The notes below the pieces were generated by a model that was not told where the DNA came from, made no database searches, and saw only the letters and a list, made by a program, of their open reading frames with translations. Shown here piece after piece: positions 25,971-46,400 of a stretch of 64,000 nucleotides of DNA; position 1 is the first letter of the stretch; the number at the start of each line of letters is the position of its first letter. The translations under genes and the position numbers were made by a program. The DNA comes from a virus. Lineage: Duplodnaviria; Caudoviricetes. The DNA lies in IMG/VR virus record IMGVR_UViG_3300028886_000058, positions 1-64,000 of that record. The stretch is one strand, 5' to 3'.

Positions 25971-26984
25971 ATGGGCAAGTCAAAAGCCAGAGGCAACGGT
26001 CAAGGATCTGCAATTAAAAGAGGAAAGTATTGGGAAGCACGAGTTGTTATAGGATGGAAACCAAATTCAGATAACACAAAATTACTTCCTATTATAAAGA
26101 CAAAGTGCGGGTTCAAGACCAAGAAAGAAGCCCTGGCTTTTTGCCCTACGTTAAAAGAATTGAACGGTCGTCCAACAAAGTCTCCTACGCTGGAATATTA
26201 TTGGAATTTATACAAAAATGGTGAGTACCAGAACTTATCCGACAGTAAACAATGTGCCGACAGAATAGCATGGAATAAACTTGAGAAGATACATCACCAT
26301 GAAATAGCATCGCTAACAATAGGCGATTTAAGAAATTCAATTCAAGGCTTAACTTATTATCCTGCAAGGGATGTAAAACAAGTGTTAAGTCACTTATTCA
26401 AATTAGCCGGAGCTGACAGATGGGTAGACAAAACACTACCGACTTATATAGTTCTTCCAACATTAGAAGAAAAGGAACGTAAACCATTTACGGAAGAAGA
26501 ACAGAAAGCTATTTGGAAAGTTTACGAAGAAGGAAACAAATGGGCTGGAGCTATTCTTGTAATGATTTATACCGGAATGATGACTGGGGAGATCAGAAGA
26601 TTAAAACCGGAAATGGTTGATCTTGAGAACAGACGTATAGTAGGCGTTGGCATTAAAACTAAAGTACGAAAGAAAGCTGTTATATATTTGGCAAAAGATA
26701 TTATTCCTATTCTGGAAGATGCTTTGAAAGAAGGCCTCTGGTATTGCAGCAAGGATGTCTTTTACAAGCACTATTATCAAGCCTTGAGTCAGGCTGGTTG
26801 TCGAAAGCTTAGTCCTTATTCATGCAGACATACTACTGCCACCGCACTCACAGTTACTGAGGGGGTCGCGCCACAGACAGTACAGAAGATCATGAGATGG
26901 GCTTCTACAAAAATGTTGGATCGTTATGCGCATCCGGATGAGGAAAGCGTAAGAAACGCAATAGAAGTCTTAAATAAGAAATAA
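25971..26984 (+). CDS. int: Tyrosine recombinase/integrase
   Basis: RGNGQGS arm-binding N-terminus, YTGM.TGE, K, YSCRHT, W, RYAH. Confidence 0.88.
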   Translation: MGKSKARGNGQGSAIKRGKYWEARVVIGWKPNSDNTKLLPIIKTKCGFKTKKEALAFCPTLKELNGRPTKSPTLEYYWNLYKNGEYQNLSDSKQCADRIAWNKLEKIHHHEIASLTIGDLRNSIQGLTYYPARDVKQVLSHLFKLAGADRWVDKTLPTYIVLPTLEEKERKPFTEEEQKAIWKVYEEGNKWAGAILVMIYTGMMTGEIRRLKPEMVDLENRRIVGVGIKTKVRKKAVIYLAKDIIPILEDALKEGLWYCSKDVFYKHYYQALSQAGCRKLSPYSCRHTTATALTVTEGVAPQTVQKIMRWASTKMLDRYAHPDEESVRNAIEVLNKK

Positions 26985-29577: not shown

Positions 29578-29631
29578 AAAAAAAGGGGACTTACGTCCCC
29601 TCAGGGTACTACTTATGTAGTACCCTTTTTT
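29578..29631. terminator. Back-to-back terminators where the two arms converge
   Basis: A7-GGGGAC/GTCCCC and AGGGTACTAC/GTAGTACCCT-T-run. Confidence 0.85.
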
Positions 29632-29929
29632 ATTCGCTTCTAAGTGCGTTGTGAAGCATAAGCACATAAGCTTCAATTTCCGCATCAACAGAAGCTAAAT
29701 CTACATTAATCCCAGAAGCCGTTAAACGTTCCTGAACCCACTTTTTCTTTTCCGGCCCCTGATCAACAGCAAAGATCTGTTCGGCAGCTTCAACATACAT
29801 ATGAATAGTGTTGTTTACATCTTCAAGCTGTTCCCTAGTATATTTCTTTTTAAGAACCGGAATAACAAAAGCCACAAGCACAAAACATACAACCTTAAGA
29901 ACAATAGACACGATATCATTAATACTCAT
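29630..29929 (-). CDS. Holin (LL-H-like)
   Basis: N-terminal TM helix; YVEAAEQ..G.EKK, IEA.V. Confidence 0.8.
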   Translation of the reverse strand: MSINDIVSIVLKVVCFVLVAFVIPVLKKKYTREQLEDVNNTIHMYVEAAEQIFAVDQGPEKKKWVQERLTASGINVDLASVDAEIEAYVLMLHNALRSE

Positions 29930-29940
29930 AATAACCCTCC

Positions 29941-30231
29941 TTAACCGTTGCTTTCATCTTCTTCGTCTTCTTCCTGAGCATAAAGACTCTTGCGCTTACC
30001 AAAGGCAATAGCAATTTTCTCAGTAGCTGAATTAGTTGTATAAGTTCCCATGTTGACTATCATAATAGTATCAACACCAGCACTTAAATCAACTAAAGCA
30101 TTGGCTACTTCAGGACGAAAAAGGACAACAATAAAATTTAATATCCGATATAACATCCAGAAAATAGTCACACAAGTGGCTATTCTTTTAGAGTACTGTA
30201 TAAATTTCTTACTGGTATTCATTCTATTCAC
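29941..30231 (-). CDS. Membrane protein (lysis module)
   Basis: Two hydrophobic segments. Confidence 0.6.
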   Translation of the reverse strand: MNRMNTSKKFIQYSKRIATCVTIFWMLYRILNFIVVLFRPEVANALVDLSAGVDTIMIVNMGTYTTNSATEKIAIAFGKRKSLYAQEEDEEDESNG

Positions 30232-30235
30232 CAGC

Positions 30236-30913
30236 TTATTCTTCGTCTTCGTCTTCTTCGAATGGCTGACCGTTGTCCATTAAGAAGCTTCGATTCTTTT
30301 TGCAATCATGGTAGATCTCCATGATATATTCAAAGTCATCCGTATAGACATCGTTCTTCATACCATATTTAGAAATAAGAGTTTCGTATTCTTTGTTTTC
30401 TTTAATGATATTACGGAAGTCTCTTACTGTGTGTTTACGCCCGTTCATGCATGAGTTTGCGAAGTCCAGAACGTGCGTTTTAATCTGACGTATTGTTTGC
30501 ATATCGTTTGACTTTTCCATAGCATCAAGACGATCTTTTAATAACAAACAATTGTCATGTGTGCCAGACTGCATATCACCTATACTTTTGTTTGTGCTTG
30601 TTTCGAATCCGTCTAAGTCATCCCTTAGTTCTTTAATCTGCCTTTCATAATCATCTTTTAATTCTTGAATCTTTGCTTCTCTGTCTTTCTTTACACCTTC
30701 AAATTGCAAAGCCGTGCTTTTCTTTAAGTCAGCAACGTCTTTACGAACATCACGGGTGAAAGCCTTACCAAACCAGCCAATAACCCAGCCAAGAGGATCA
30801 ATTTCCTTTTTGGCTATTTTAAATAAACAAGATAATATGAATAAGAAAATAATTACAGAAAAGCCAACGTGATTTATTATCCATTGACCAACTGCTTTAG
30901 ATATTTCGCCCAT
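30236..30913 (-). CDS. Membrane-anchored coiled-coil protein (lysis module)
   Basis: N-terminal TM, IDPLGW, coiled coil. Confidence 0.6.
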   Translation of the reverse strand: MGEISKAVGQWIINHVGFSVIIFLFILSCLFKIAKKEIDPLGWVIGWFGKAFTRDVRKDVADLKKSTALQFEGVKKDREAKIQELKDDYERQIKELRDDLDGFETSTNKSIGDMQSGTHDNCLLLKDRLDAMEKSNDMQTIRQIKTHVLDFANSCMNGRKHTVRDFRNIIKENKEYETLISKYGMKNDVYTDDFEYIMEIYHDCKKNRSFLMDNGQPFEEDEDEE

Positions 30914-30925
30914 ATAGGGTCACTC

Positions 30926-31213
30926 CTATACGTTCAACGAAAGTTTTAATGCATCGTATAATTCCTTAGCAGCAGCTTTAGATATGCTGATTGTAACGAT
31001 ATCGTCTTCGCTTTCGTCTTCAAAATTTAGATACTTAGTCATTACATATCCCGTATAGGCATTGTAAACAGCTTTACACCATACAACACCTTTTTCGAGA
31101 ACCGCAATAACAGAACCGTTAGGTATGCTAGTGATTCTATTAGACTTAATATCAGTATCTTCGCGCATGTTTAAAGAGCCGCCGATGACTGTTGCGTATT
31201 CCACTAGAATCAC
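30926..31213 (-). CDS. Stand-alone SH3b cell-wall-binding protein
   Basis: LNMR, IPNG, WCK..Y....GYVM.KYL. Confidence 0.75.
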   Translation of the reverse strand: MILVEYATVIGGSLNMREDTDIKSNRITSIPNGSVIAVLEKGVVWCKAVYNAYTGYVMTKYLNFEDESEDDIVTISISKAAAKELYDALKLSLNV

Positions 31214-31222
31214 CTCCTTTAA

Positions 31223-31951
31223 TTAATAGTCTCCCTTGCCATCCCCAATTATGTCAAGGAATTTAGCCATCATATATCCAGTATATTTGTCATATGTGAC
31301 TTTGCACCACTCTTCACCGGGTGAAACAATATTTATAATTGTTCCAAGAGGAAGCCTTGTTATAAGAGATGCGCTCAAACTTGGTGCCTTACGAAGGTTA
31401 ACAGTTTTACCGGATGGTGCAACAAGAACAGCTTGAGTTCCAGAAGTAGGAATTGGAGTAGGGGATGCTTCTACAAGCTGCCTTGATTTTCCGTGATAGT
31501 TCCAAGGACATTTCCTGTTTTGGTCGAGCCTTGTATCTATTGTCATTTTAGAACTCATATGACGGATCTGGAATGGGTTTAAACTATAAACCACACCAGC
31601 GTGATAATAGTCTGTAGTATCTCCGTTGTAATACTTTCCGCCGTTACGATAACGAGACGGGAGATCCCATCCGCTCTTTCCTTGGTCTACGCCTTTCAAA
31701 ACGATATCGCCAAGTTCAAGTTGCTTAATATCTTTTATTGGTTCAAGTCCTACTATTTCTTTTCTTGCAGCCCAGTTAGAACCATGAATTCCAGTCCACT
31801 TAAGTCCCATGCGACGAATTGCACCGATTATTAAACCAATACAGTCGCAATATCCATCAGAACCATCTCCAGGCTCACGGCGCTTTGGGTTTAAATTGTA
31901 AATAACCAATACTTTAGCCAAAAACTTTTTTACAGCTTCTTCATATGTCAT
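31223..31951 (-). CDS. Endolysin (NlpC/P60-like peptidase plus SH3b)
   Basis: DCIGLI, YHAGV, C-terminal SH3b; in the lysis module with the holin. Confidence 0.78.
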   Translation of the reverse strand: MTYEEAVKKFLAKVLVIYNLNPKRREPGDGSDGYCDCIGLIIGAIRRMGLKWTGIHGSNWAARKEIVGLEPIKDIKQLELGDIVLKGVDQGKSGWDLPSRYRNGGKYYNGDTTDYYHAGVVYSLNPFQIRHMSSKMTIDTRLDQNRKCPWNYHGKSRQLVEASPTPIPTSGTQAVLVAPSGKTVNLRKAPSLSASLITRLPLGTIINIVSPGEEWCKVTYDKYTGYMMAKFLDIIGDGKGDY

Positions 31952-31975
31952 ATAGTTTCACCTCCTTTGAGAAAA

Positions 31976-32015
31976 TAAATAAAACGGTATAGTTAGTATA
32001 ACCATACCGTTTATT
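31976..32015 (-). terminator. Terminator-like hairpin
   Basis: ACGGTAT/ATACCGT stem with A/T tracts. Confidence 0.5.
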
Positions 32016-32022
32016 GCGACCT

Positions 32023-32994
32023 TTAAGTTGATAGGCATTGCACCTTAAACTCCGCAAGCTGTTCCGCTGTCATGTTAATCGGCAAGACAGCCCCAGAATC
32101 ATTTGGATCTGTTTTCCACACAACAACCACAGCGTTATATCCGCTTGGCACTTCAAACTCAAGATTGTTTTCATACGACCAAGTGTAATCGCTTGCGGTT
32201 TCTGTGTATCTCTTTCTGTCAGCGATATAATACTGCGATCCGTTTGCATTCTCGTTAGTATTATTTGCTCGTGTTGTTGTATCAAAGAATATTGCTCTTG
32301 CACCATAGCTTGCATTCAGACCGATGCATTTTATTTTTGCTGTCCCTGTCGGTATTTCCATAGGAACGGGATAACCAATGTTCTCATATACACGCTTTTG
32401 ATTAGATCCTGCATCTCCATTTGTTAATTCTGTTGGAGTTGCCATTTGATAGTTATATCCGGAATCAGCTTTGTTTATTGCCATGCTTGCACAAAGCAGC
32501 TCCCCGTCATAGCTTTGCACAGCGTTCATCATTGTCAAATAACCATTGTATTCTGTATGACCGGTGTATCCGATATTGCAGTTCGTCTTTGTGAAATTGT
32601 TGTTTCCGCTTTGGTTCGGGTCTGTTAGCGTGTTTGCTATAACAATCCCTGTCAGGTATGTGTCTACACTTACAACAACGGAACATGTATCAGAATACGA
32701 TCCACTTGTTGCATTAATTGTACAGGAACCTACACCAACTGCCGTGACAAGTCCGTTCGTTACTGTTGCCACGCTTTCATCAGAAGAACTCCATACAACA
32801 GGGTCAACAGAATTTGACGGCGTTACCGTTGCAGACAGTAATGTCGTATCTCCTATTGTAGTTATTTCTGCTGAAGAAGGTGAAACATCAATTGCAGTAG
32901 TATGCGCTCCGTCAAATGAAATGGTTGTCACCTTGTTTGTTGAAAAATCCGCGCCTTTAATAACCAAAGCCTTTGCCATGATTACTCCCTCCAA
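32023..32994 (-). CDS. Ig-like (Big_2) domain virion protein
   Basis: LSATVTP.N...VVWSSSDESVATV..G.VTAVG.G. Confidence 0.8.
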   Translation of the reverse strand: MEGVIMAKALVIKGADFSTNKVTTISFDGAHTTAIDVSPSSAEITTIGDTTLLSATVTPSNSVDPVVWSSSDESVATVTNGLVTAVGVGSCTINATSGSYSDTCSVVVSVDTYLTGIVIANTLTDPNQSGNNNFTKTNCNIGYTGHTEYNGYLTMMNAVQSYDGELLCASMAINKADSGYNYQMATPTELTNGDAGSNQKRVYENIGYPVPMEIPTGTAKIKCIGLNASYGARAIFFDTTTRANNTNENANGSQYYIADRKRYTETASDYTWSYENNLEFEVPSGYNAVVVVWKTDPNDSGAVLPINMTAEQLAEFKVQCLST

Positions 32995-34976
32995 TCCAAC
33001 TTAATGAATCCGTCACCGATTTCGTTTTCATAAACAATTCTTCCGATTGCATCCGTTGCGCTGTTTATCACAACCATGCTACCGCTGGACAAACCCACAT
33101 AATCGCCAAGATTGAAGGATGTAATCCCAACCCTGTCCGTTCTGACATAACCGCTCACTTGGATGTATGCGTCTGTGCTGTCCTCATATACGACCACGCC
33201 ATGCGCCGTATCAGCACTTGTTGCTGTTCTCCACTTCGGGCCATTTTCAGTATCGGCGTACCACTCTACAACATCCCCAACGGAAAGGTCTGTCCTCGGA
33301 TCAATCACGATATCGCCTGTGTTATAAAGCATTCCGGTTGGAAGGTCATAAAGCGGAGATTTTCCACATACACCCATAACCCTTGCGTGTGAAACGCTGT
33401 CAGGCATTGTGCTTCTGATCCACATGAAGTCGCAATCTATGAACGTATACACACTTTTCCCGGGCTGGGTTTCTTCACTGATAGAAGAATCACCAATTCT
33501 GAACCCATGCCCTTTGCAATGCACAAGCCGACATTGCAATCTGTAATTCTGTACTGCACTTGCATGAAGACCCGCATTTTCTCCGAAGTCGCAATCAATG
33601 AACTCATAGTAACCACCACTTATCGGACATCCTGCCCCGTATGTGGTTTCCGGACTGTATGCAATGTTATACCCACGGAAGATGCAGTTTTTTACCAACC
33701 GTTTCAAATGCTTCGCCCCGTTGAACTGCCAATCATCATGCACACAGTAACGGAGATTTGTTGCGATCACAGTAAGGTTTTCAATGGAACTTGTCCCTTG
33801 CAGATTAAGTGTACTGATTTGTCCTCTGTATTTTTGCGTCCATTCTGTTGTATCAAGGTATCCATTCAGCACGATTTCGGAAGGATCACCAATTCCTACA
33901 AGGCTCATACCATTTAGCAGTTTCGGGCCGACAAAGCCTTCCTGTGTTGACGGGGAAGTAGGATCGTCATCGTCATGGATATTTGCGATCTCTTCGTCCG
34001 TATAATCGTCAAGCACATCATATGTGCCTGGATAGATTTCAATCCTGTACGGATTCAGCACATCATTCGCCGTCAAACCTATTGCTTCAAGGCAATCCTT
34101 CAGATTCGTATAATTGCCCGTCCCGTCCTTTTTGATTGTTACGACAGTAGGCTCAATCGGAACATCCCCAAGAACAGACAGCTCAAATGTGATATCCAGC
34201 GTTCGAGAAAATGCAGACGATGAATAAACACCGGAAATCGAATTACAATCCGTTGTTACAATGTGTTCATAATATGCAGAATCACCCCGGACAAAAGATG
34301 CGATTTCCTTGCTACCTTCATAATATGTGACGGGCGAACCATACTCCCACGGCTTTGCTCCGTATTCCATGTGCAGAACAACCTTCTGCCCTTTTTTGAA
34401 AGATCTGTTGATTGTCAACGATAGCGCCGTCCTGTTGAACGATCCTGTTACTGAATACGTTGTGTATCTCCGTCCGTCAAACTGCTTTACAATGAAACCA
34501 CCATCGGCAAACCTTGCAATAGCGTTCCCATTCGTGTCGGTAATGTCTATATCAGGATCAGTTTCTTCCGTAGCCTTGACAATTACATCTTGCGTCCCGG
34601 CATCCGAACTGTCAAAATTCTTTGTCTGAATATGCCCGCCAGCAAGACGCAGAATAACGTTTCCGTTTGCATCCGAAATATCAAGATCAACATCTGTTTC
34701 TGTGCTGTCTTTCTGTTCCGGCAAACCGTTAATTTCGTTCAATAAATTGCTATGATCCGTCGCATGTTTGTCAGCACTAACTACCTTATCGGTATCTCCA
34801 ATACCAGCTGTGTCGTCAATTTCAACACCGCCATTCTGATCCATCCAAACAGGATTCAGACTATTATTAAGTCCGAGCACCTGACCTTCAGTCCCTACTG
34901 TGGCAGGCGCATTAAGTTTTTTTATAATATCTTTATAAAGATCTCCGCTTAATTTAATAGATCCTGTTACTGCCAT
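32982..34976 (-). CDS. Tailspike-like protein with pectin-lyase-type beta-helix
   Basis: VTIKKDGTGNYT, IEIYPGTY, IENLT, YCVHDD; shared N-terminal IDDTAG module. Confidence 0.65.
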   Translation of the reverse strand: MAVTGSIKLSGDLYKDIIKKLNAPATVGTEGQVLGLNNSLNPVWMDQNGGVEIDDTAGIGDTDKVVSADKHATDHSNLLNEINGLPEQKDSTETDVDLDISDANGNVILRLAGGHIQTKNFDSSDAGTQDVIVKATEETDPDIDITDTNGNAIARFADGGFIVKQFDGRRYTTYSVTGSFNRTALSLTINRSFKKGQKVVLHMEYGAKPWEYGSPVTYYEGSKEIASFVRGDSAYYEHIVTTDCNSISGVYSSSAFSRTLDITFELSVLGDVPIEPTVVTIKKDGTGNYTNLKDCLEAIGLTANDVLNPYRIEIYPGTYDVLDDYTDEEIANIHDDDDPTSPSTQEGFVGPKLLNGMSLVGIGDPSEIVLNGYLDTTEWTQKYRGQISTLNLQGTSSIENLTVIATNLRYCVHDDWQFNGAKHLKRLVKNCIFRGYNIAYSPETTYGAGCPISGGYYEFIDCDFGENAGLHASAVQNYRLQCRLVHCKGHGFRIGDSSISEETQPGKSVYTFIDCDFMWIRSTMPDSVSHARVMGVCGKSPLYDLPTGMLYNTGDIVIDPRTDLSVGDVVEWYADTENGPKWRTATSADTAHGVVVYEDSTDAYIQVSGYVRTDRVGITSFNLGDYVGLSSGSMVVINSATDAIGRIVYENEIGDGFIKLDWRE

Positions 34977-34992
34977 ATTCTAATCACCTTCC

Positions 34993-36480
34993 TTATTCAG
35001 GGTTAACGTCAGTAATAAACAGCGTTATTGAACCACTTGGTGCCCCCGGCAAAATCATTATGGAAATGGCTACATTCGAGCTGTTCAGCGTATAGCTAAG
35101 ACTTGTATAGTACTTTTCTGTAGCGCTGTTATATCCGATCACGTTTGACTTGTCAGACAGCCTATTCCTTACAAGGTTAACGCCCACATTTGCGTACCTC
35201 GGTGTGTCGCCAGAGTTAGCCATAACTGGAACAGTAACACTAATTACGTTCGTGTTGTCTTTCCATATAGGATTCCCGAAAGTATTTAACGAGAGAAACT
35301 GACCCGTTGTCCCTGCAACAGAAGGCGCATCAAGCTTACCGCTGATGTCTGGTATATCACTCGAATCGGCTTTATCAGATAATTCGCTTACAATCTTATC
35401 TGCACTCCAAATCTTATCAGTGTCACCAGATCCAGCCGTATCATCTATTGGAATGGAAGGGATGTCTGTAATTTTTGCTAGTTTTGTCCCACCAGAACTA
35501 TCGTCGTTACATCCGACATACACATCACCGGAAAGTCGTTCATTACCGTTCCAGTCAAGTGTACGGGCATTCTTTTTTGCTGATGAAGCTGATCCTTTAC
35601 CAACAATCTCTATATAATTTCCTCTATTAGAAGCTGAAGCCGTTGATGGGTCTGCAATGTTATATGATCCAAATGCATGCTGATATGCATGGTTCGCTAC
35701 TGTACCCATTCCTTCAGCATGTGAATATGTTCCGCTTGCGGTTGTAGTATATCCTTCTGCATGAGCAGCGGTTGCAGTCGCTTTAGTAACATATCCCTCT
35801 GCATGTGAATATTTTCCACTTGCCGTCGTAGCCATTCCTTCTGCGTGAGAATATTGTGCTGAAGCAGTCGTTGTGCCGCCTTCAGCATGTGCTCCTTCAG
35901 CAGATGCTGTTGTTGAAGTGCCTTCTGCGTGTGCTCCATCTGCAGTAGCGGATGCTCGATGTCCTTCTGCATGAGCTCCATAAGCAGAAGATCCAGATCC
36001 AGAATTCGCTCTAGTTTGATATCCTTCAGCGTGGTCAGCTTTTCCCAACGCACCACGTCCTGTATCTCCTATGCCTTCAGCGTGGCTGTATTCACCAGAA
36101 GCTATAACAGATGAACCAAACGCAAAGCTACCAGTTCCTGTGTTTCCTGATCTTCCACGACTAAGCGTAGTGTCTAAAATAGTATTTTCTTTATCTGCTT
36201 TGTTGGAAATATCTACAGTTGTCCAAGATCTTCCGCCTTCACCATCTGTAGAAAGTACCTGACCATTAGTTCCTTCTTCGGAAGGTTCATTTATTTTTGA
36301 ACTAAGTTCGTTATATGTTTTGTCTGCAGACCAGACTTTGTCTGTATCTCCTTGACCAGATTCGTCGTCAATAATTGCGACTGAAGTTTCTGATATTCTT
36401 TTACGGAGATCTTTATATAATACTTGTCCGTCTGCAAGAGTCATTAATTTTTTAAGTATATCCATATGCTCACCTCGCAT
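34993..36480 (-). CDS. Fibre protein with YadA-head-like HAEG repeats
   Basis: About 10 tandem 14-aa (S/A)HAEG..T.AS repeats. Confidence 0.75.
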   Translation of the reverse strand: MRGEHMDILKKLMTLADGQVLYKDLRKRISETSVAIIDDESGQGDTDKVWSADKTYNELSSKINEPSEEGTNGQVLSTDGEGGRSWTTVDISNKADKENTILDTTLSRGRSGNTGTGSFAFGSSVIASGEYSHAEGIGDTGRGALGKADHAEGYQTRANSGSGSSAYGAHAEGHRASATADGAHAEGTSTTASAEGAHAEGGTTTASAQYSHAEGMATTASGKYSHAEGYVTKATATAAHAEGYTTTASGTYSHAEGMGTVANHAYQHAFGSYNIADPSTASASNRGNYIEIVGKGSASSAKKNARTLDWNGNERLSGDVYVGCNDDSSGGTKLAKITDIPSIPIDDTAGSGDTDKIWSADKIVSELSDKADSSDIPDISGKLDAPSVAGTTGQFLSLNTFGNPIWKDNTNVISVTVPVMANSGDTPRYANVGVNLVRNRLSDKSNVIGYNSATEKYYTSLSYTLNSSNVAISIMILPGAPSGSITLFITDVNPE

Positions 36481-36566
36481 TATGTTATAAGAGCATAAAA
36501 AATGGCAGTTTTACGGATCTGCCAACCGAAATAAGTTAGTTATGTATTACCGTTAATTGCGACCTT

Positions 36567-36668
36567 TTAATTGCCAGAATGCCGCAGTAAAATAACTAAA
36601 CAGATTACACATTCAAGCAGAACGGTTGCAACCGCTCCCGTTATAATCCCACGGATAAAGTCCGTCAT
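36567..36668 (-). CDS. 33-aa single-TM protein (not in ORF track)
   Basis: MTDFIRGIITGAVATVLLECVICLVILLRHSGN; ATG overlaps the upstream stop. Confidence 0.5.
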   Translation of the reverse strand: MTDFIRGIITGAVATVLLECVICLVILLRHSGN

Positions 36669-37003
36669 TCTTCGGTTTCCTCATTGGGTTCCGGTTCCGG
36701 GGGTGTCATGTCCGGGAAAGCACCCTTGCTGTCACGCATGATCTGCCGTCCGTCCGCACGGGTCAGAGTGACCGTCCACATGGCACGGTTGTTCGCCGTG
36801 AGGAAAGCAGATACACGGCTGTAGAATTCTGCCTGTGCAACTTCCAAAGCACGGGATTCGTCCCCGTTGGGGTTCTGCTCTGTTGCTCCATAGTTCCGTG
36901 AATCATAGTTCTTCGGATAGTCCGGTACAACGGACATAATCCCTTCCGGGTGAGAATCGGAAACAACCACCTGCGTTGCGTTTACTGTGAAAATGTTCCT
37001 CAT
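36665..37003 (-). CDS. Hypothetical tail-associated protein (PEPEP tail)
   Basis: RBS; resembles 41088-41399. Confidence 0.65.
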   Translation of the reverse strand: MRNIFTVNATQVVVSDSHPEGIMSVVPDYPKNYDSRNYGATEQNPNGDESRALEVAQAEFYSRVSAFLTANNRAMWTVTLTRADGRQIMRDSKGAFPDMTPPEPEPNEETEE

Positions 37004-37025
37004 GTTTATTACCGTCCTTTCTGAT

Positions 37026-37712
37026 TTAAGTTACCGGAGCAACGTATGTCCCGTTCAATGTTTCATAGCCGAATTCTCCAGTACCATCGTTCGTCAAAAA
37101 TGTTCCAGTGATTATGTTGTAAACCCCGACTTTGTTGTCGGATTTTCTCATGCACGGGATAAATATCCCTTTCCCAACTACTTCAGCATATTTTAGTTTC
37201 AATCTCGTTGTGACTGAAGTTTTGCTGTTATAGTTGAATAATTGATACTGTTTAAGTGTTGGCGAATATCTGTCCCATCGACCTTCATATTCATACACAA
37301 CACCGTCAAAAGTATATGTTGTATTGATTGCGTTTGCTTCTACTTCATAAAATGTGTTGATATCCATTAGCGGTCTTGTGCCACTACCATCGCTAGCTCC
37401 TATATATATAGTTAGAGGTTTTTGTACGTATGGTGATTGTCTTGTTAATGATCCAATTCCGAGTGCCCACATACCCGTTCGTCCTGCAAAGATAGCAGAA
37501 TCTTCATTAGAACCTCCCAATGTGCAAGCAAAGGTAGCTCTTATAATATCATTCATGTCGGATTGGTAAGCATCCGTGTTTATGAAATGGTTTCCATTCG
37601 CTTCAATATATTTAAGTTCGACATATCCGGCAGGAAGCAAGCCCGTTTTCTGCATTGCCAATAACCGTCTGCGGATTCCGTTTACGTCCACGATCCCGCC
37701 ACCCCCAGACAT
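37026..37712 (-). CDS. Putative ConA/LamG-like lectin-fold fibre protein
   Basis: LP.GY.EL.YIE..G..FI.T and FIPC.RKSD..VG.Y..I.G.F.TN.G.GEF. Confidence 0.55.
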   Translation of the reverse strand: MSGGGGIVDVNGIRRRLLAMQKTGLLPAGYVELKYIEANGNHFINTDAYQSDMNDIIRATFACTLGGSNEDSAIFAGRTGMWALGIGSLTRQSPYVQKPLTIYIGASDGSGTRPLMDINTFYEVEANAINTTYTFDGVVYEYEGRWDRYSPTLKQYQLFNYNSKTSVTTRLKLKYAEVVGKGIFIPCMRKSDNKVGVYNIITGTFLTNDGTGEFGYETLNGTYVAPVT

Positions 37713-40594
37713 CCGTCCATGATGTTGATTTCATAGGTTGTGTTGGCATCCAAACTGGACGGATCGAATCCGTTCGCCCACCGCATTGTCATTCCTGTCG
37801 GTGGAGTAACTGTCAGAACTGTTGCCGTACTACCGGATTCAAATGTTACATCAATACACCCGGAAGACGGAACAACGATGGTCAAGGTTGAGACCTCGCC
37901 GCAGACGTATCTGACTCCGGCTTTCGCCGTGATGGACGGGGTAGTGCCGCTGACGGAAACAGGGGCATTGAGCATACTGCTGATTGCTGAAAGCGATTTC
38001 TCCGGGTATGTTCCAACTGTTACCGTATCATTCTTTAAGTCCTCTCCTGCCAACTTTGACAACCCATAATAAAGTGCATAGGTCAAATATGCTGGCATTA
38101 TAGGACATAACGAATTTGTCCCCTGTTTTATTTGATTAACGGTTGACCCTTCTACCTTGAGATTCCCGTTAGCATCAATATTTACACCTTTTGTTGCATC
38201 AATTTTAGCAACACCAAGAACAGAAGTCCCTGCAACAGGGACATTTGCAACACCCTGTGATACAACCGAAACATTATTAACCTTTACGTCCGAAACCCCA
38301 CCACCACCGGACGGTGTAGACCAAACAGGGTCAAGGTTGCTATCAAGGGAAAGCACCTGCCCCGCTGTCCCTGCGGTTTCCGGTGCATCCTGTTTGCCGT
38401 TTATTTGGTTCAATAAACTGCTATTCATATCAGTCAGTTTGTCGGCACTAAACGTTACATCCGTGTCTCCGGCTCCAGCAGTATCGTCAATGCGCGTTAC
38501 ACCGAGCATGCTCTGAATAGCGGATTTGGCTTCATCGGTATATGTGCCGACAGCATTGGAGGATGCGCTTTGAGTAGCATCACCTGCAGCCTTTGCTAAT
38601 CCATAAAATGCGGCCTCATGTTGTGTATTTGGAACAATAGGGCGTTTATTATTGGATGCGGGTGTTTTGATATCGCTACTTGTCGCAGGAGCAATATATA
38701 ACATATTATATGTGCCATTACGATATATGCCAGTTGTTGTACTTGAATTGTTTCCGGCACTTACAACACCAATTTGATTTAACCCGGCAAGAGGAATATT
38801 TGCCACGCCGATTTCATTAACAATGCTCGTGCCGTTAATCTGCACATCGCTAATTCCGTATATGTTTATTTGCCAATCCTGTGCCCACGGCAATTTCGAT
38901 AACATCAATGTGCTAAGACCACCAGACCTAACCGGATCAAACGCTGATCCCATAAAAGCAATAAATTGCCCAACGTTTGGTATATTTTCTATAACAGATA
39001 TCGGAAGCTCTGATTGAACATCATTGAGAACAGCTACAGCCTTGATCTTTACGCCATTATCGTGAGCAGTTACAATATCTGAGTCTGTCGTATCGCAAAC
39101 AACCGTGTAAATAGGTTCACCGGGTGGAACTACTCCGCTTCTCGACACAAGCGTAAACGTCACAGTAAGCCCGGGCTTATCTTCCTTGGTTGCGAGGGCA
39201 GTGTCTACGTAACCTTTATTGGCGGCATCTGTAGAAGCAGTTGGATTAGCAAGCTGTGCGATTTTCATGTTCTGAGCTGTATAAACACCGTTCATAGACA
39301 GCATTGGCTCAGTCTGCATTACTGGTATAGTTTCGCTTCCAGAAGAATGAGCCAAAACTATATAAATTATACCTTCAATAGTAACTGTTGTACTGACAAA
39401 GAATATATATGTGCCACGTTGTCTTAATCCAAATATTTGTGCTTTAAAACGTTGCCCGTCACCAACTATAATAGCTTCTATATTCTTTCCACTATCGTAT
39501 GCTTGTCCAATTTCTTCGATAGTCTTATCACAGGTTGCTGTATTATTACCAGTAATAGTATATGTTGCTATCAGATCGGGCTTATCTTCCTTCTCGGCAA
39601 GAGAAGTATTTACACTTGAGAATTCTGTAGTCAGTTTGTCAGCAGACCAAGTAGAGGTTGTATCTCCGGCTCCTCCGTTATCGTTTATGACTTCAAGAGA
39701 AACCGGGATATAAGTAAGTCGCCATGACGGTATGATTGAAGCGCCGAGTAATTCGATGTCGATAAATCCTTCTGAATTTACATCTATTACTCTGCCGCCA
39801 AACACCGCAAGAGTATAAGTCGGACCTCCACCGGGCAACGCTTGGGACTCCACATAAACGGTATTTAGCTCAGAAGGATAGCGCATACTATCATTTCCTG
39901 GTTCCAGAACGTTTGCGATAGCCTTTATACGCTTACCGACATTGTAAGCAGCACCTATTTCATTGAGAGTCCTGTCACACTCGACTTCTGCGGAGTCACC
40001 AGACTGGTCAGGTGTAATAGTAAACGTTACAACATACGGAGCATCCTCTTTTTCTGCAAACTCTGTAGTCAGCTTATTCGCAGACCATGCCCTGTTGGTA
40101 ACACCCGCTCCGGCTGTATCATCAATATAAGATGGTAGTTGCGAAAAAGGAATCTTTCCTTCTTCATCTAAAGTTGCAACACCGTTTGCAACACCTTTTT
40201 CTGATAAGTCTATTTTATTTAAAACTTGCGTTAAAATTTGAGAAGAAATATCGTCTCCAATGAATGGAAGATTATTTAATGGAGTGTTTCCATTTCCTAT
40301 TTTAACGCCTGGATAAGCGACATTATTTATAACATTTCTATCTGTATATATAACAATCTCACCAAGCTCTGGAGTGATTGATTGATTTTCCCAGTAAGTT
40401 GTTGTGTTAATATTCGTTTTTGACAATAGTAAATCAGCATAAGCCATATCGCCTTGTATTGTAATGCCGCCTAAAGAAGGTAGATTTCTCAATTCGTTAT
40501 AATCTGCCGATGCAACAAATGCAGATGTTCTTATTTTTATTTGAGAAGAATTTATTGGGTTGATATTAAATTTATCCATTTTATCACCCCTCAT
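37682..40594 (-). CDS. Modular tail fibre-like protein
   Basis: Repeated IDDTAG..WSA.K, DAANKGYVD, DVQ.NGTS and FYGLAK modules. Confidence 0.7.
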   Translation of the reverse strand: MRGDKMDKFNINPINSSQIKIRTSAFVASADYNELRNLPSLGGITIQGDMAYADLLLSKTNINTTTYWENQSITPELGEIVIYTDRNVINNVAYPGVKIGNGNTPLNNLPFIGDDISSQILTQVLNKIDLSEKGVANGVATLDEEGKIPFSQLPSYIDDTAGAGVTNRAWSANKLTTEFAEKEDAPYVVTFTITPDQSGDSAEVECDRTLNEIGAAYNVGKRIKAIANVLEPGNDSMRYPSELNTVYVESQALPGGGPTYTLAVFGGRVIDVNSEGFIDIELLGASIIPSWRLTYIPVSLEVINDNGGAGDTTSTWSADKLTTEFSSVNTSLAEKEDKPDLIATYTITGNNTATCDKTIEEIGQAYDSGKNIEAIIVGDGQRFKAQIFGLRQRGTYIFFVSTTVTIEGIIYIVLAHSSGSETIPVMQTEPMLSMNGVYTAQNMKIAQLANPTASTDAANKGYVDTALATKEDKPGLTVTFTLVSRSGVVPPGEPIYTVVCDTTDSDIVTAHDNGVKIKAVAVLNDVQSELPISVIENIPNVGQFIAFMGSAFDPVRSGGLSTLMLSKLPWAQDWQINIYGISDVQINGTSIVNEIGVANIPLAGLNQIGVVSAGNNSSTTTGIYRNGTYNMLYIAPATSSDIKTPASNNKRPIVPNTQHEAAFYGLAKAAGDATQSASSNAVGTYTDEAKSAIQSMLGVTRIDDTAGAGDTDVTFSADKLTDMNSSLLNQINGKQDAPETAGTAGQVLSLDSNLDPVWSTPSGGGGVSDVKVNNVSVVSQGVANVPVAGTSVLGVAKIDATKGVNIDANGNLKVEGSTVNQIKQGTNSLCPIMPAYLTYALYYGLSKLAGEDLKNDTVTVGTYPEKSLSAISSMLNAPVSVSGTTPSITAKAGVRYVCGEVSTLTIVVPSSGCIDVTFESGSTATVLTVTPPTGMTMRWANGFDPSSLDANTTYEINIMDGCLGVAGSWT

Positions 40595-40952
40595 TTGAAG
40601 CCCATGTGACTTCTCTTGTTAAGATAAATTGACCACATACTGTGGATTTTATAATGTTTTCATGAATCAACTCTATGTCAAATTCATAAGATTCATTTGA
40701 TTTACAAATTGGAAGATTGTTAGTGTCTTCTGGATTAATTTTAATTCTATAAGTTCCCGTATCGATTTTAGAAATTCCACCAGTACTTAACTTTTTTTGA
40801 ATAATAAAATTCTGATCGCTATATTTTTTCTTTACTGTAAAGAAAATTTCTTGAAAATCTATATCCATAATTTTATCAGGTTCTTCATCTATTACAGTAA
40901 ATTCTATATAATAAATATCTCCTCTAGGCATTGCAATTCTCATAACATTCAC
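40584..40952 (-). CDS. BppU-N-like baseplate/fibre adaptor
   Basis: RGD...FTV, FTVKK, I.PEDT..L, FDIEL, F.L..EVT. Confidence 0.55.
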   Translation of the reverse strand: MNVMRIAMPRGDIYYIEFTVIDEEPDKIMDIDFQEIFFTVKKKYSDQNFIIQKKLSTGGISKIDTGTYRIKINPEDTNNLPICKSNESYEFDIELIHENIIKSTVCGQFILTREVTWASNEG

Positions 40953-40960
40953 CTCTTTTT

Positions 40961-40988
40961 AAAAGGGGAGGCGGTTTCCCGCCTCCCC
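40961..40988 (-). terminator. Intrinsic terminator
   Basis: GGGGAGGCGG/CCGCCTCCCC stem with an A-run on the + strand. Confidence 0.8.
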
Positions 40989-41087
40989 AGATCGTCACGT
41001 ACCAGTAGTAGCTGGTGCACCACTACCAGCCCAAGCAACATAACGACCCATCGCAGAATCAAAACAGCAACCTAAGTTGCATGAGTG

Positions 41088-41399
41088 TTATTCGCCTTCG
41101 GGTTCAGGTTCAGGTTCGGGTTCGGGTTCAGGTTCCGGCTTCACATGCTGAAGCACTTCACGCTTGATCTTACCGGATTCGATAGTACCAAGTTCAACGG
41201 ATTCAAGTTCGACCTTCATGTTCGGATCGGCAACGTTGATCTCGTTGTTCCACATAGCGCTAACCATCAGCGCATACTGTTTCTCCGCTTCCGCACGGGT
41301 GCCATAGGGGTAGTTCGCGGGAGTCTTCCTCTCGCCATTTTCAACATACTGCCTCTGTACATAATAATTAAGTGCCATAATAGTATACCTACCTTTCAT
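41088..41399 (-). CDS. Hypothetical protein with (PE)n tail
   Basis: KPEPEPEPEPEPEPEGE. Confidence 0.65.
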   Translation of the reverse strand: MKGRYTIMALNYYVQRQYVENGERKTPANYPYGTRAEAEKQYALMVSAMWNNEINVADPNMKVELESVELGTIESGKIKREVLQHVKPEPEPEPEPEPEPEGE

Positions 41400-41404
41400 T
41401 TATT

Positions 41405-42355
41405 TTAGTCATCATATCTGATGCCATATAATTTTAAGTTAGCACCAGATGGGATTAACGATTTGCCTGTTCCGCTTTGGTATATACGTAAAGATGTTAT
41501 ATATTCAGCAATGTAACTATCTTTAGTCATCATTTGAAGATTCTGTGAACTTCCTTCTGACGAAGCAGAAATAGTCGTTGCTGAGATTGGAGCATTTGGA
41601 ATTGCCTCAACATTGACCCTTGCTGACAAGGTTGACGATGCTGTTACATATGTTATAGATGGAGCACTTGTTGATCCACCATTACCTTGTTGATTTGCAT
41701 AGCCAACTTTAATGTAAAAACTATCTTTGGTTCCTGTTGTAGACGGTCCGGATGTAAATATTGCAACTAATTTGCGAAGCTTGAAAGGCATCTCAAATTG
41801 ATCTTCATCAACACGTATTTCTGTCGAATCTTCAGAAACAGTTACATCATTTATAAGTTCCCATTTCGTATTAGGAATTCCAAGCATCTTACGAATTGCT
41901 TTCAATGCTTCGTCAGTGTACTCGCCTACTTCGTTGGAAGAAGCAGATTGGGTAGCATCACCGGCGGCTTTAGCCAAACCATAGAAAGCGGACTTATGCT
42001 GACTACTTGGCGTAACCGCCACATAAGGCCAAGACCCGTTTTTAATTTGTGTATCAGACGGAGGTTGAAGGACAATATGACGGTTTGTCATATAATGCCC
42101 ATAAGTAGGATTGACGATTACAACCCCGGCTTTGCTTTGCGTTGCTGCGGTTATTTTTGCAACGCCGTTTTCAAGCACGGAAGTGCCGTCAACCAGCACA
42201 TCTTCAACCGGATATTCTTGCGGGGTTACATACAGATCGTCCGGAGAATAATTGACAGTAACGCCGTCAACCGTGATTGTTCCGTTTGCAAAAAGCTGTT
42301 GAGCCTGTGCATTAGTAAGATAAACCACTTTTTGTAAACTCATGCTACTGTCCAC
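41405..42355 (-). CDS. Modular tail fibre-like protein
   Basis: DV.VDGTSV and FYGLAKAAGD modules; paralog of 46780-47676. Confidence 0.65.
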   Translation of the reverse strand: MDSSMSLQKVVYLTNAQAQQLFANGTITVDGVTVNYSPDDLYVTPQEYPVEDVLVDGTSVLENGVAKITAATQSKAGVVIVNPTYGHYMTNRHIVLQPPSDTQIKNGSWPYVAVTPSSQHKSAFYGLAKAAGDATQSASSNEVGEYTDEALKAIRKMLGIPNTKWELINDVTVSEDSTEIRVDEDQFEMPFKLRKLVAIFTSGPSTTGTKDSFYIKVGYANQQGNGGSTSAPSITYVTASSTLSARVNVEAIPNAPISATTISASSEGSSQNLQMMTKDSYIAEYITSLRIYQSGTGKSLIPSGANLKLYGIRYDD

Positions 42356-43494
42356 CCCTTTGCTGTTGCTACTGCAAGTTCTGATGAAGATAATTTTGCT
42401 TCGGAAATATTGCTTAAAGTAAGCGTTTTTCCAGATACTTCTCCAAGTTTTGCAATTATTCCATTAACAAGACTATCATGGCTTAAACTAACGCACGCTG
42501 CCAAATTTATTGATTCGACTATATTATCTCCCAAATAGCAATCTTCAAGAGCATAGCAAGAACTAAACATTGCTCCTGTACTCGTACATTCAGACATATC
42601 ACATCCAGACATATCTAAAGATTTTAATAGTCTACAACCAGAAAATGTGTAATACGTGCTAGTGATTTTAAGTCCATCGGTACGAATGCTTATACTTTTA
42701 ACGTTTTGGTTATCCTGAAAAGTTTGCCCCAATGTTATACTACCAGTTGTACTTGACAAGCCATCAATATTTATAGACTTTGAACTTCTGCTTCCAAATG
42801 TTCTGCCATTAACAGATTTAATATTTTTCGCAACAATATCTATATTATCCCCATTAATGCCGCAACTACCACTATTTATTAATCGCCCAGCATTTTCAAA
42901 ATCTCCATCATTGATGATTATAGATTTCAAGTTAGGGCAAGGAGCAAATCCGTAGCCTATAGACATAAGAGGTGAAATATATAATCTTGCCCGTTCAAGC
43001 ATAATAGTGGATATTCCACCGCTGCCATTTGAATATAAATCAATAGCAGTAGCTGAATATGTTTTTCCATACATCCATAGACATGGTTGATTACTACCAT
43101 TATTATTGCTTGTATTATACATTTTTTTTGCAGCATTTGTTGCGAAACAAAATTGTCCGTTATTCAAATTAGACAATTTTACAACAGCATATTTACAATC
43201 ATCTGGTAAGCTTACAAACACATTAGGACTGGAACGTTCAATTGTAGAGTCATCGAATTCTGATAAAACCCCATTCTTATACGATGCAACAGATAGACTT
43301 GCTGTAGAATAACCGCCAACTGAGAATCCAGCATGCTTAACTTCGGTCTCACAATCATATAAGAAATAAATGCATGCTTCATTACCAGACGGAAGAGGCA
43401 AAGCTTCAATATCTGGCCAATCTTCAGGCTTAACCCATACATTAGGATCAGTCTTTGTCACGACACCAACCGGACTATTCCCAAGATATATCAT
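42340..43494 (-). CDS. BspA/DUF285-like LRR surface protein
   Basis: W.KP.DWPDI; TFSGC..LKSLD; MFSSC.AL. Confidence 0.6.
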   Translation of the reverse strand: MIYLGNSPVGVVTKTDPNVWVKPEDWPDIEALPLPSGNEACIYFLYDCETEVKHAGFSVGGYSTASLSVASYKNGVLSEFDDSTIERSSPNVFVSLPDDCKYAVVKLSNLNNGQFCFATNAAKKMYNTSNNNGSNQPCLWMYGKTYSATAIDLYSNGSGGISTIMLERARLYISPLMSIGYGFAPCPNLKSIIINDGDFENAGRLINSGSCGINGDNIDIVAKNIKSVNGRTFGSRSSKSINIDGLSSTTGSITLGQTFQDNQNVKSISIRTDGLKITSTYYTFSGCRLLKSLDMSGCDMSECTSTGAMFSSCYALEDCYLGDNIVESINLAACVSLSHDSLVNGIIAKLGEVSGKTLTLSNISEAKLSSSELAVATAKGWTVA

Positions 43495-46400
43495 GCCAAT
43501 CTCACCACCTCTACGTTGTGGATGCCAATCATGCTCTGAATAGCGGCTTTAGCGTCATCGGTGTATGTTCCCACAGGATTGGAGCTTGCAGATTGTGTGC
43601 TATCTCCTGCCGCCTTTGCAAGTCCGTAAAATGTTGCATTGTGCTGATTTGACGGAACAATCGGCATATTCGTATTTGCCCCGGCTTTTATTCGATCGTC
43701 TGTTGCCTTTGCCGTTGCAATGACTCCTTCATTGCCAGAGGATGTCATTATCAGAATTCCTGTAGCCCCCGTATTTGTTGGGTGCTGTCGAACAACCCCT
43801 AATGCGGACAAACTCGCAATCGGAATATTTGCAACACCAGACGAAACAACGCTCGTACCATTCACCTGTACGTCCCCAACCTTACCAGATAATGCCGTAT
43901 TCATTTCGGCAACTGTCGGTACGGAGTATTCGGCTACGTCATCGTTGTTAATCCATAGCTTATTCTCTTCTTCAGTAGGCTCGGTATCAGAAACGATAAC
44001 CACATTGGATGCTTCTTCGGTGGAAGGAACATCGAGCATGGACTGGATAGCGGTTTTAGCGCCATCTGTGTAAGTACCGACAGGGTTGGAAGATTCGCTT
44101 TGTGTTGAATCGCCACTCGCTTTTGCAAGCCCATAGAAAACAGAAATGTCTTGGTTATACGGAGTGATTGAACGATTATTTGAATTCCCTGTTTTAAGCG
44201 TTGCGTCATTTCTATTTGCGCCTTGCACAGATAGAATTCCGCTCGACGACATTGCTAATCCATTTCCTATATAAGCAACACCGGGAGTCGAACTGCTCGC
44301 AATTGGAATATTCGCCACACCATTACTGACGATGCTTGTACCATTGATCTGAATATCAGTGGGATTTTTGAAACTTATACTCCAGTCTTGCTGTCCCATA
44401 AATGAAGCTTTTGTAAGAACAACATCGCTGAATCCAACATTGCTCAAACCAGAACCAATAGAGTAAAGATCGATAGATCTTCCCATGAACATTATAAGTG
44501 ACCCGACATTCGGAACTGTTTCTATCATGTATAATGGCAACTCAACGCGCATTCCAGCAATATCTGCAACGGCTCTTATTTTTTCTCCATTATCATGAGC
44601 ATTCACGATATCGGAGTCAGTTGTATCACATGTAACCGTATAAGGGTCAGTCTCTTCTTGACCTGGCGCAGTAATAGTTTTATTTGTTATAACAGTAAAC
44701 GTCACTTCAAGTCCGGGTTTATCTTCCTTGGTTGCAAGAGCAGTGTCTACATAATTTTTCGTAGTAGCATCTCCGGAATCAGTTGGCTCTCCAAGATATG
44801 ATATTCTTTTGGAATACGCGATAAATGAAGAGTTTCTATCAAGCATGTCTGTTGCTATAGTTTGATAGAAATAAACTTCCCAAGTTGCACTTGAAGTATT
44901 GCCAAATACTCTTATGAAAACTGGAGCGTCTTCTGGGCTATATGTCGAATCCGCCATAATAGTAGTAACTTGCCCACTTTGACTAAAAAGTAAACGCGCA
45001 GGTAAGGCTGTTTGACCGTATAGAGAAAAGAACGCTTCTACCTTCTTATTATTGGCATACGCTTGTGCAAGTTCTGCTTGAGTTTTGTCACACGACACAG
45101 TAAAAGCAGGAGTCTGCGATGACAAATCCGGAGTAAATGTGAATATCGCCGTAAGATCAGCTTTATCTTCCTTTGTCGCAAGAGCCGTGTCAACATAACC
45201 TTTATTGGCAGCGTCTGCGGAATTAGTCGGATTTGCAAGCTGCGTAATTTTCATGTTCTCTGCTGAATAAACGCCATTCGCAGATAGCATTGGTCTAAAT
45301 TGTATCGCAGGTATAGTTTCACTCCCGGAAGAATGCATCAAAACAATGTGTATAATTCCTTCAAAACCTATCGTTGCACTAACAGCGCACAAATATATAT
45401 CAGGGCGTGGGTTCAATATCATTGGTTGTGCATTAACTCGTAGCCTGTCAGCAACTATAACAGCTTCTATTGTTTTCCCACTGCTATATGCTTGTCCAAT
45501 TTCTTCGATAGTTTTATCGCAAGTTGCTGTATCCGTTCCAGTAATAGTATATGTTGCTATTAGATCGGGTTTGTCTTCTTTTCCATCAAGTGCGGAAGAG
45601 ATAGTTGTCTGAATGCAATTTGTATTCGGAAGTATATAATCATTTACAGCAATATTAGAAGTTGCCTTATAAAGCTTGTTATCATAAATGAAAATATCCC
45701 CAATAGCATATGCGTTGTCAGAAGTATTATCTTCTTCTATAGTTGCAATCATTGCATTGCTGTTTGAAGCAATTGTTTTTAATTCATTTCCAACAGTGAC
45801 TTCGTTCCATTTTGATGAATTAAAAGCTTCGAAAGCAGCGATATCCGTATTTGCTTTATAAAATTTATTTTCATTTATACAATAGTCTCCAGCTTTAACC
45901 GGGAAAAGACCAGTATTAAAAGCGTATGTTTTAGCGAAAAGTCTTAAAATATCTAATTGTGTTTTCTCTCGACTTATGCTTCCATCGCTATTATAACCTA
46001 AGGATATTGTTGAAAAACCGCCTTCCATTGAAGCTGTTTTTACAAAACTTACCATGCTCGGAAGGACAGCCATAAGCTCAAGTCCCATCCCCATGCCCGG
46101 GGCAACTTGAACTATGCACCCATCACATTTTCCATTTGAAGCAGCATCATAAACTTCTTGGAAAGTTAAATTACATACATATTCACCAAGATTAGATCCT
46201 GGAGAGAACACAGGTGTGATATGAAGTTCCGTTTTATCCGCTTTAGAGCTGATGTCAACTTCAGTACTACCAATCATTTCCCATGAATTATTTACATAAA
46301 TGTATTCATCGTAAATATCATGAGTGTCCGGAATCTTAGGCACAAAATAGATAGTATGCGTTTTGATATTTTGTGTCGGAAGTTCCTGCACGATCTGAAC

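Follow-up and report, generated by a model that had tools for sequence, protein, structure and literature searches.

The first 64 kb of a 124.6-kb rumen virus contig (Duplodnaviria; Caudoviricetes; IMG/VR record IMGVR_UViG_3300028886_000058, positions 1 to 64,000, hereafter the window) contain the receptor-binding end of a phage tail module, which is organised as two sets of fibre genes. Our analysis of this locus points to modular exchange of fibre genes by general recombination at conserved junction sequences, which is a known kind of evolution and probably the origin of the present organisation. The anatomy of the locus is modular, parts of it are shared in mosaic fashion with unrelated phages, junctions are scattered around short conserved motifs, and no dedicated recombinase was detected among the families searched. 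A sequence-only reading had attributed two tail-gene cassettes to site-specific, integron- or shufflon-like exchange at four short sites, i.e. two “entry” sites (A and B) inside fibre genes and two “exit” sites (A and B) at the stop codons of the last cassette genes. We infer instead that general recombination, homologous or illegitimate, would swap fibre modules between co-infecting phages or prophages. Patches of homology would be provided by short conserved stretches, namely the neck codons, the sequences at gene junctions and the boundary motif described below; selection would retain only the joints at structural domain boundaries, and new receptor specificities would thus arise as in other phages.

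All genes of the stretch lie on the minus strand within the tail module, with the four sites on their antisense strand. Along the minus strand, the order begins with set 1, consisting of a 970-amino-acid (aa) long tail fibre, a 228-aa variable protein, a 112-aa partner and a 33-aa open reading frame (ORF), followed by the exit B element. Set 2 comes next, with a 495-aa YadA-like fibre, a 664-aa beta-helix tailspike and a 323-aa partner with an immunoglobulin (Ig)-like domain, followed by the exit A element and the lysis genes. Both sets end in a related element, in which a motif just after the stop codon is followed by a hairpin.

One recent exchange is directly visible in the 664-aa tailspike (32982..34976, minus strand), for which 136 homologs were found. 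P0241, a 741-aa protein from another sample that belongs to the same 90% cluster, is ~97% identical to the spike from residue 94 to the end, and its N-terminal 160 residues are unrelated. Mismatches are frequent as far as residue 93 and rare beyond it, and four of the nine residues right after the ING of the entry peptide differ. The swap junction is located at aa 93-100 (~34680-34700), 30-45 nucleotides (nt) downstream of the entry A core, and a crossover in that core is therefore excluded for this event. The alignments of the spike homologs begin in three clusters (q72-91, q129-142 and q272-278).

Similar scatter was observed in the 970-aa fibre (37682..40594, minus strand), which comprises neck modules, a repeated domain and a C-terminal tip of ~100 aa. 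Among 55 IMG/VR loci with a match reaching the C-terminus, junctions fell at aa 760-769 (26/55), aa 860-899 (15/55), aa 581 (5/55) and aa 727 (1/55). The family junctions are thus 25-140 codons from the entry B core, and a single locus starts at entry B. The GC content of third codon positions (GC3) in this gene is 0.31 before codon 862 and 0.58 after it (change point support 835-879), and the change point coincides with the onset of DNA identity to another phage, G001, at 37990. The earlier impression that the enclosed DNA is richer in CCG and CGG was correct (25-74 per kb vs 11-15 per kb in the flanks), and its GC3 is higher too. The shift in composition is not placed at entry B, from which the change point is ~390 nt away; in the 664-aa gene the GC3 change point is ill-defined (codons 30-180).

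G001 is a complete 62-kb phage with terminal repeats, found by a pattern scan for the exit motif and otherwise unrelated. Its islands in common with the window are the fibre tip (37682-37990, 81% DNA identity), the 112-aa and 33-aa genes (76%), the spike neck (80%) and exit B (94.7% over 75 nt). An exact match of 33 nt was furthermore found at the junction of the translationally coupled 384-aa and 316-aa genes (window 42342-42374; L017 6725-6757). It covers the last codons and the stop of the 384-aa gene (..VATAKGWTVA) together with the start of the following gene, which overlaps it, the proteins being otherwise only ~45% identical. In a 151-aa gene of G001, DNA homology to the spike neck stops at ~34716-34722, ~5-10 nt past entry A, which is the sole junction coinciding with a site and also the natural end of the neck helix. 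The expectation of breakpoints at the sites was thus borne out near entry A by G001, but not by P0241 or the 970-aa family, whose junctions lie elsewhere.

Mosaicism extends to combinations of genes. Two module combinations recur in many otherwise different phages, namely the tip with a variable protein and the 112-aa gene, and the spike with its Ig-domain partner. The 112-aa gene (36665..37003, minus strand), a conserved partner of the fibre tip, has 67% identity to its G001 homolog and a GC3 of 0.58 vs the genome GC of 0.377, and homologs stand beside a tip domain in ten IMG/VR loci. The spike homolog is directly followed by a homolog of the 323-aa protein in four other phages. P0241, G001 and the relatives of the 112-aa, spike and tip genes together sustain the part of the original proposal that concerned exchangeability, as C-terminal receptor-binding modules and accessory genes can be placed on different N-terminal anchors. 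The locus has further features of a mosaic fibre region: conserved motifs are repeated within and between fibre genes and bracket variable segments, breakpoints are at or near motif and domain boundaries and not at one fixed nucleotide, and the heterogeneity of composition matches foreign segments (the 970-aa gene past codon 862 and the 112-aa gene). Paralogous patches with 76-80% identity are also present within the genome, in the 970-aa and 1088-aa genes.

It should be added that the repeated domain of the 970-aa fibre is found in the 1088-aa and 316-aa tail proteins as well; segments of the three genes (38507-39592 vs 43530-45581 and 41907-42010) show 71-80% DNA identity and include a ~115-aa domain, which is repeated in many relatives. 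Two fibre genes of G001 (L017 7879-8334 and 9557-10597) have a near-identical stretch of ~100 nt from LLNAIN onwards, and this internal duplication could support homologous exchange within that genome. In the loci L018-L024 and L051, a protein of 126-388 aa overlaps the end of the tip gene; its N-terminus is conserved (MSGGGGIVD.. or MD.M..RR..L), its body is unrelated between phages, and the 112-aa gene always comes after it. The pair looks like an adhesin with constant anchor and variable head, accompanied by a partner. In the window this position is occupied by the 228-aa protein (37026..37712, minus strand), which has the conserved N-terminus (MSGGGGIVD..RRR) and a variable body, overlaps the end of the 970-aa gene and is a candidate distal adhesin or adaptor.

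The four sites were originally connected through the 9-mer CCGTTWATT, which indeed has exactly four copies in the window, all on the plus strand (32007, 34726, 36550 and 38397). As a common core, it did not prove significant: 1.43 matches are expected, and four copies were reached in 7 of 100 shuffles. The description of the entry sites was accurate, as their codons give LLNEING (664-aa gene) and LLNQING (970-aa gene), immediately past the IDDTAG..SADK module, and the pair is identical in 25 of 28 nt. Rather than DNA sites, these stretches are the seven codons that end a helical neck peptide. Entry A (34726..34746, minus strand; aa 78-84) is the C-terminal end of the neck helix of the spike, and entry B (38397..38417, minus strand; aa 726-732) is the end of the third neck module of the 970-aa fibre. 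In the AlphaFold2 model of the spike (predicted local distance difference test, pLDDT, 82), the neck helix comprises residues 68-83 and terminates at LLNEING.

Six copies of the IDDTAG..SADK neck module are present in the three fibres, all on the minus strand: three in the 970-aa protein (40073-40126, 39635-39688 and 38438-38491), two in the 495-aa protein (36319-36372 and 35395-35448) and one in the spike (34767-34820). At least three more copies occur in upstream tail proteins, giving at least nine in all, and the GQVL..W knob motif has at least five copies in tail proteins; neck and knob motifs recur in homologs from many contigs. The spike homologs P0071, P0073 and P0074 align straight across LLNEING, with the same neck and then the same repeats. 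P0145, P0146, P0161 and P0164 align from aa 698-705 via LLNQING to the end with 61-71% identity, and in at least 11 fibre homologs the neck, LLxAING, the KQDAPETAG..GQVL knob and the tip form one contiguous block. Synonymous-codon identity, counted for identical residues only, was 5/7 in the entry site and 8/14 in the rest of the neck module. The entry site does not exceed the remainder of the module in this respect and hence gives no sign of extra constraint at the DNA level. With codons that belong to a protein block contiguous in relatives and codon identity that is not raised, the entry sites are not supported as DNA exchange sites. A scan of IMG/VR with the entry pattern returned G001 only.

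No gene of the Resolvase family (serine invertases) was detected in the 124.6-kb genome. A 337-aa tyrosine recombinase (25971..26984, plus strand; PF00589, 52.7 bits), a generic phage integrase, is the sole recombinase of the two families searched and lies 5 kb from the locus on the opposite strand. It reached 39.6 bits on the XerA/integron-integrase model, vs a cut-off of 220 bits; dedicated integron-integrase models gave no match, and no IntI-type recombinase stands beside the array. By eye, the RYYYAAC/GTTRRRY cores of attC-type sites do not fit, and the hairpins differ in sequence and are terminator-like. Moreover, the cassettes hold 2.5 to 4 genes, unlike the single-ORF cassettes of integrons. 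Inverted sites of the shufflon or Gin/Cin kind are absent, as the four cores are on one strand and no inverted repeat bounds the cassettes. A tyrosine-recombinase core with inverted arms and a spacer of 6-8 bp was not present at every site: the 7-6-7 dyad is perfect at entry B alone (7/7), with 5/7 at entry A and 4/7 at both exits, against a genome background with a mode of 4-5. A template/variable repeat pair of a diversity-generating retroelement was not seen in the fibre region. With no fitting recombinase, all sites direct, no common dyad and junctions off the cores, the site-specific mechanism of the sequence-only reading is not supported.

The exit sequences, in turn, do represent a meaningful boundary, and their motif marks the ends of fibre sets in other phages too. 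In the exit A element (31977..32030, minus strand), the boundary motif has its core at 32013-32024 and is joined by an intrinsic terminator of 14 pairs (31982-32012) that has a T run. The exit B element (36497..36573, minus strand) combines the motif (core 36556-36567) with a degenerate hairpin and with a stem-loop, GGCAG..CTGCC, that likewise has a T run. The stop codons originally assigned to them are in place, that of the 323-aa gene in exit A (32023-32025) and that of the 33-aa ORF in exit B (36567-36569). The two elements are paralogous over ~50 nt, including motif and hairpin. The exit pair is identical in 18 of 19 nt and unique within the genome; it is among only 21 direct pairs (19 nt, ≤1 mismatch) genome-wide, vs 0-7 in simulated genomes.

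Across IMG/VR, 80 of at least 118 matching stretches were read, and the resulting counts of motif copies are lower bounds. The 12-nt core AAAGGTCGCAAT was found in at least seven copies in five otherwise unrelated rumen phages, each time after the last gene of the fibre set; among the matches listed, the window phage and G001 have two copies each, and L051, L176 and G002, a small siphovirus-like contig, one each. Both flanks of the core vary, a hairpin follows soon after in most copies, and lysis genes are next after the motif in G002, in L176, at exit B of G001 and at exit A of the window. The middle copy of G001 (L017 8322-8382) is enclosed by an 8-bp inverted repeat, AATTGTAA .. TTACAATT, and has a small hairpin 5' of the motif instead of 3'.

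Searches beyond this set were largely negative. A 14-nt motif had four matches in 401 Oscillospirales genomes, none in a fibre context, and the reversed control had 22. The 17-nt exit pattern retrieved from IMG/VR one true relative (G001) and five chance matches, and the 19-nt exit pattern only five chance matches from Joint Genome Institute (JGI) metagenomes. Rfam had no family for 30000-42000, a hidden Markov model of the exit element detected no further copies in the genome, and folding revealed no structure common to the motif itself. Readings of the motif as a sigma-70, sigma-54 or extended -10 element were compared by eye, and none fits. We consider that the boundary motif is most likely a punctuation signal of transcription units; this would be its main role, with service as a recombination linker only a by-product.

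Several observations at the exits weigh against exchange by general recombination as the whole account. The core is identical to the letter in five phages with nothing else in common and with differing flanks; such conservation calls for some direct function, be it in transcription, RNA handling or recombination, and general recombination does not explain it. In four of the seven copies, the TAA of the motif itself is the stop codon of an unrelated upstream gene (33, 323, 29 and 55 aa). In both two-copy phages, the extra fibre cassette is located exactly between the copies; the set of G001 measures 2.3 kb and is enclosed by one copy behind a 34-aa ORF and another joined to a terminator with 95% identity to exit B of the window. 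G001 has, in comparison with the window, the appearance of a filled site with a 17-nt direct repeat, as site-directed insertion predicts. The exit B island shared with G001 is 95% identical, vs 76% for the flanking genes (P = 2e-5 for ≤4 mismatches). In a genome scan with 27-mers, the exits were the best matches to entry A outside its family (20/27 and 19/27, all others ≤18), and for exit B only exit A matched better than entry A. Furthermore, exit A reads in another frame as N-L-K-V-A-I-N-G, a neck-end-like peptide, and in exit B the Leu codon of this reading is a stop codon; the entry and exit types may thus be related. The significance of this resemblance is borderline: when the scan covers the entire spike gene, an entry-exit match of 17/24 does not exceed what shuffled controls give.

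These observations could be accommodated by dedicated docking, in which the motif, perhaps together with the similar neck-end codons, is a recognition site where a site-specific or short-homology-guided enzyme inserts and excises whole sets, producing arrays of alternating sets and sites. We consider this unlikely. It agrees with the single-copy phages, which have one fibre set before the motif, as well as with the extra set of the two-copy phages, the filled and empty appearance of G001 and the window, the stop codon provided to four unrelated genes and the LKVAING reading of the exit motif. The hairpin after most copies is imperfect and loosely attC-like. An 11-mer of G001 is limited to three copies, one at exit B and one at each of the two LLNAIN codon sites; we discounted it as independent support for a shared core, since these sites are homologous to those of the window and the 11-mer was inherited with them. 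The generic integrase, the lack of an adjacent recombinase or a Resolvase-family gene, the absence of common dyad symmetry, the N-terminal swap junctions that miss the entry cores and the entry-exit match within shuffle range all speak against docking. The distribution of the motif does so too: it was seen in five phages only among the matches listed, out of 2.9 million viral contigs scanned, was absent from the JGI metagenomes (in its longer pattern) and from fibre contexts in the Oscillospirales genomes, and the spike-partner pair of L035-L038 already occurs without it at the ends. A related proposition, to which we assign a low probability, is that AAAGGTCGCAAT, stop codon and hairpin together make up a portable docking or punctuation site common to unrelated rumen phages, at which whole sets are plugged in and out. 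If true, it would account for the extra cassette between two copies and for the likeness to the neck-end codons that join the anchor.

The neck-like peptide of the exits also suits a different account, in which the exit motifs are decayed neck-end codons left by a Campbell-type single crossover in the neck, the old C-terminus having been deleted later up to the terminator. The TDHSNLLNEING stretch of the spike has a parallel in the end of the 33-aa ORF together with exit B, and the direct orientation of the sites is as predicted for a motif duplicated around an insert. A copy without function should drift, however, and the core is identical in seven copies whose flanks vary. Two precise deletions would moreover be required for each of five of the seven copies, and the copies of G002 and L176 follow genes that bear no sign of a disrupted fibre; a relic origin is accordingly improbable. 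That the 9-mer is shared by coincidence and the sites are ordinary coding or terminator sequence, as its frequency in shuffles and the shuffle-range entry-exit match would allow, is very improbable and largely refuted by the excess of the exit pair over simulated genomes, its position on the stop codons that end fibre sets and the recurrence of the same core in the same context in four other phages, the entry pair being explained by protein homology.

Modular exchange by general recombination has close counterparts. In T-even phages, Trojet et al. (2011, PMC3157838) and Tetart et al. (1998, as cited in PMC3157838) describe recombination between conserved motifs of the distal fibre and adhesin genes (gp37/gp38). 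As in that system, variable receptor-binding segments are bracketed here by short conserved coding motifs with exchanges within or near them, fibrous blocks are repeated and interchangeable, and there is no dedicated recombinase. The present case differs in concerning rumen phages, probably of Clostridia, with motifs of their own (the IDDTAG..SADK..LLNxING neck and the GQVL..W knob), in the movement of whole multi-gene sets, in the non-coding motif at the 3' boundary and in being known from sequence and not from crosses. Receptor-binding proteins typically show recent shuffling of domains across phage families (2023, PMC10684548), and whole host-recognition modules are common to unrelated phages (Gonzalez-Serrano et al. 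2023, PMC10579305). The near-identical beta-helix spike on unrelated N-termini in P0241 and the 664-aa protein resembles such cases, as does the tip with its small partner genes in phages whose genomes differ greatly in size; module ends marked by a conserved non-coding motif are not described there.

On paper, the arrangement of a coding stretch at the 5' side and a non-coding repeat after the stop codon at the 3' side is also like that of Neisseria pilE/pilS. There, cassettes are bracketed by 5' conserved coding stretches and a Sma/Cla repeat past the stop codon and are exchanged by general recombination; the process is gene conversion from silent copies in one genome, which is programmed, depends on RecA and occurs at high frequency. 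Nothing in the window shows silent copies or high frequency. With integrons, the R64 shufflon, Mu Gin and P1 Cin, the locus shares variable C-terminal or whole-gene cassettes behind a constant part, and the frequent position of the stop codon in or next to the attC hairpin of integrons is loosely alike. It departs from these systems in having no enzyme of IntI, Rci or Gin type, no inverted sites and no match to the attC core pair; its multi-gene cassettes, starting inside a gene, are likewise unlike those of integrons.

As for the other genes of the locus, the 664-aa spike has a short N-terminal anchor, the GQVL..W knob motif and its neck module, followed by two DxDxSDxxGN repeats, a beta-sandwich and a right-handed beta-helix; a Foldseek search with its model returned pectin methylesterases, GH87 glucanases and phage depolymerase tailspikes. 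Its conserved partner, the 323-aa protein (32023..32994, minus strand), has a Pfam Big_2 Ig-like domain (E = 3e-12) and an uncharacterised C-terminal domain. The 495-aa fibre (34993..36480, minus strand) carries YadA/Hep_Hag-like head repeats with a period of 42 nt besides its two neck modules. The 33-aa ORF (36567..36668, minus strand) is hydrophobic and has a G001 ortholog with 87% identity over 31 aa. The first lysis gene past exit A encodes a 242-aa endolysin with an SH3 domain (31223..31951, minus strand), and the holin gene is at 29630-29929. A ..LYDDLR.R(I/V)E.. motif was noted at the N-termini of P0241 (residues 10-26), the 495-aa fibre (36400-36470) and a 346-aa fibre of G001 (L017 10520-10590), with a weaker version in the 664-aa protein; it may be a common peptide for attachment to the baseplate or another fibre.

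Relatives of the phage were sought by other routes as well. Megablast and blastn against GenBank phages revealed none; the only tblastn matches of the 970-aa fibre, in crAss-like and Chryseobacterium phages, were confined to an N-terminal motif of ~80 aa (aa 104-186), and tblastn of the spike had no match. The 122-aa and 316-aa neighbours, used singly as queries against IMG/VR, had no match either. A profile scan of genome contigs with the 112-aa alignment detected one distant Acutalibacteraceae prophage, which is without the motif; this relative suggests a host among Clostridia. It should also be added that positions 1-54 of the genome are repeated at 124420-124473, 182 nt before the contig end, which suggests an imperfect terminal overlap or repeat; IMG/VR classifies the record as linear.

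If modular exchange by general recombination is the right explanation, this locus would be a further case of the LEGO-like evolution of receptor-binding proteins, in uncultured rumen phages with few characterised fibres. The neck and knob motifs, the module of tip, variable protein and 112-aa gene and the pair of spike and Ig-domain partner can assist the annotation of such phages, and the 3' edge of host-range modules in this group could be recognised simply by the boundary motif.

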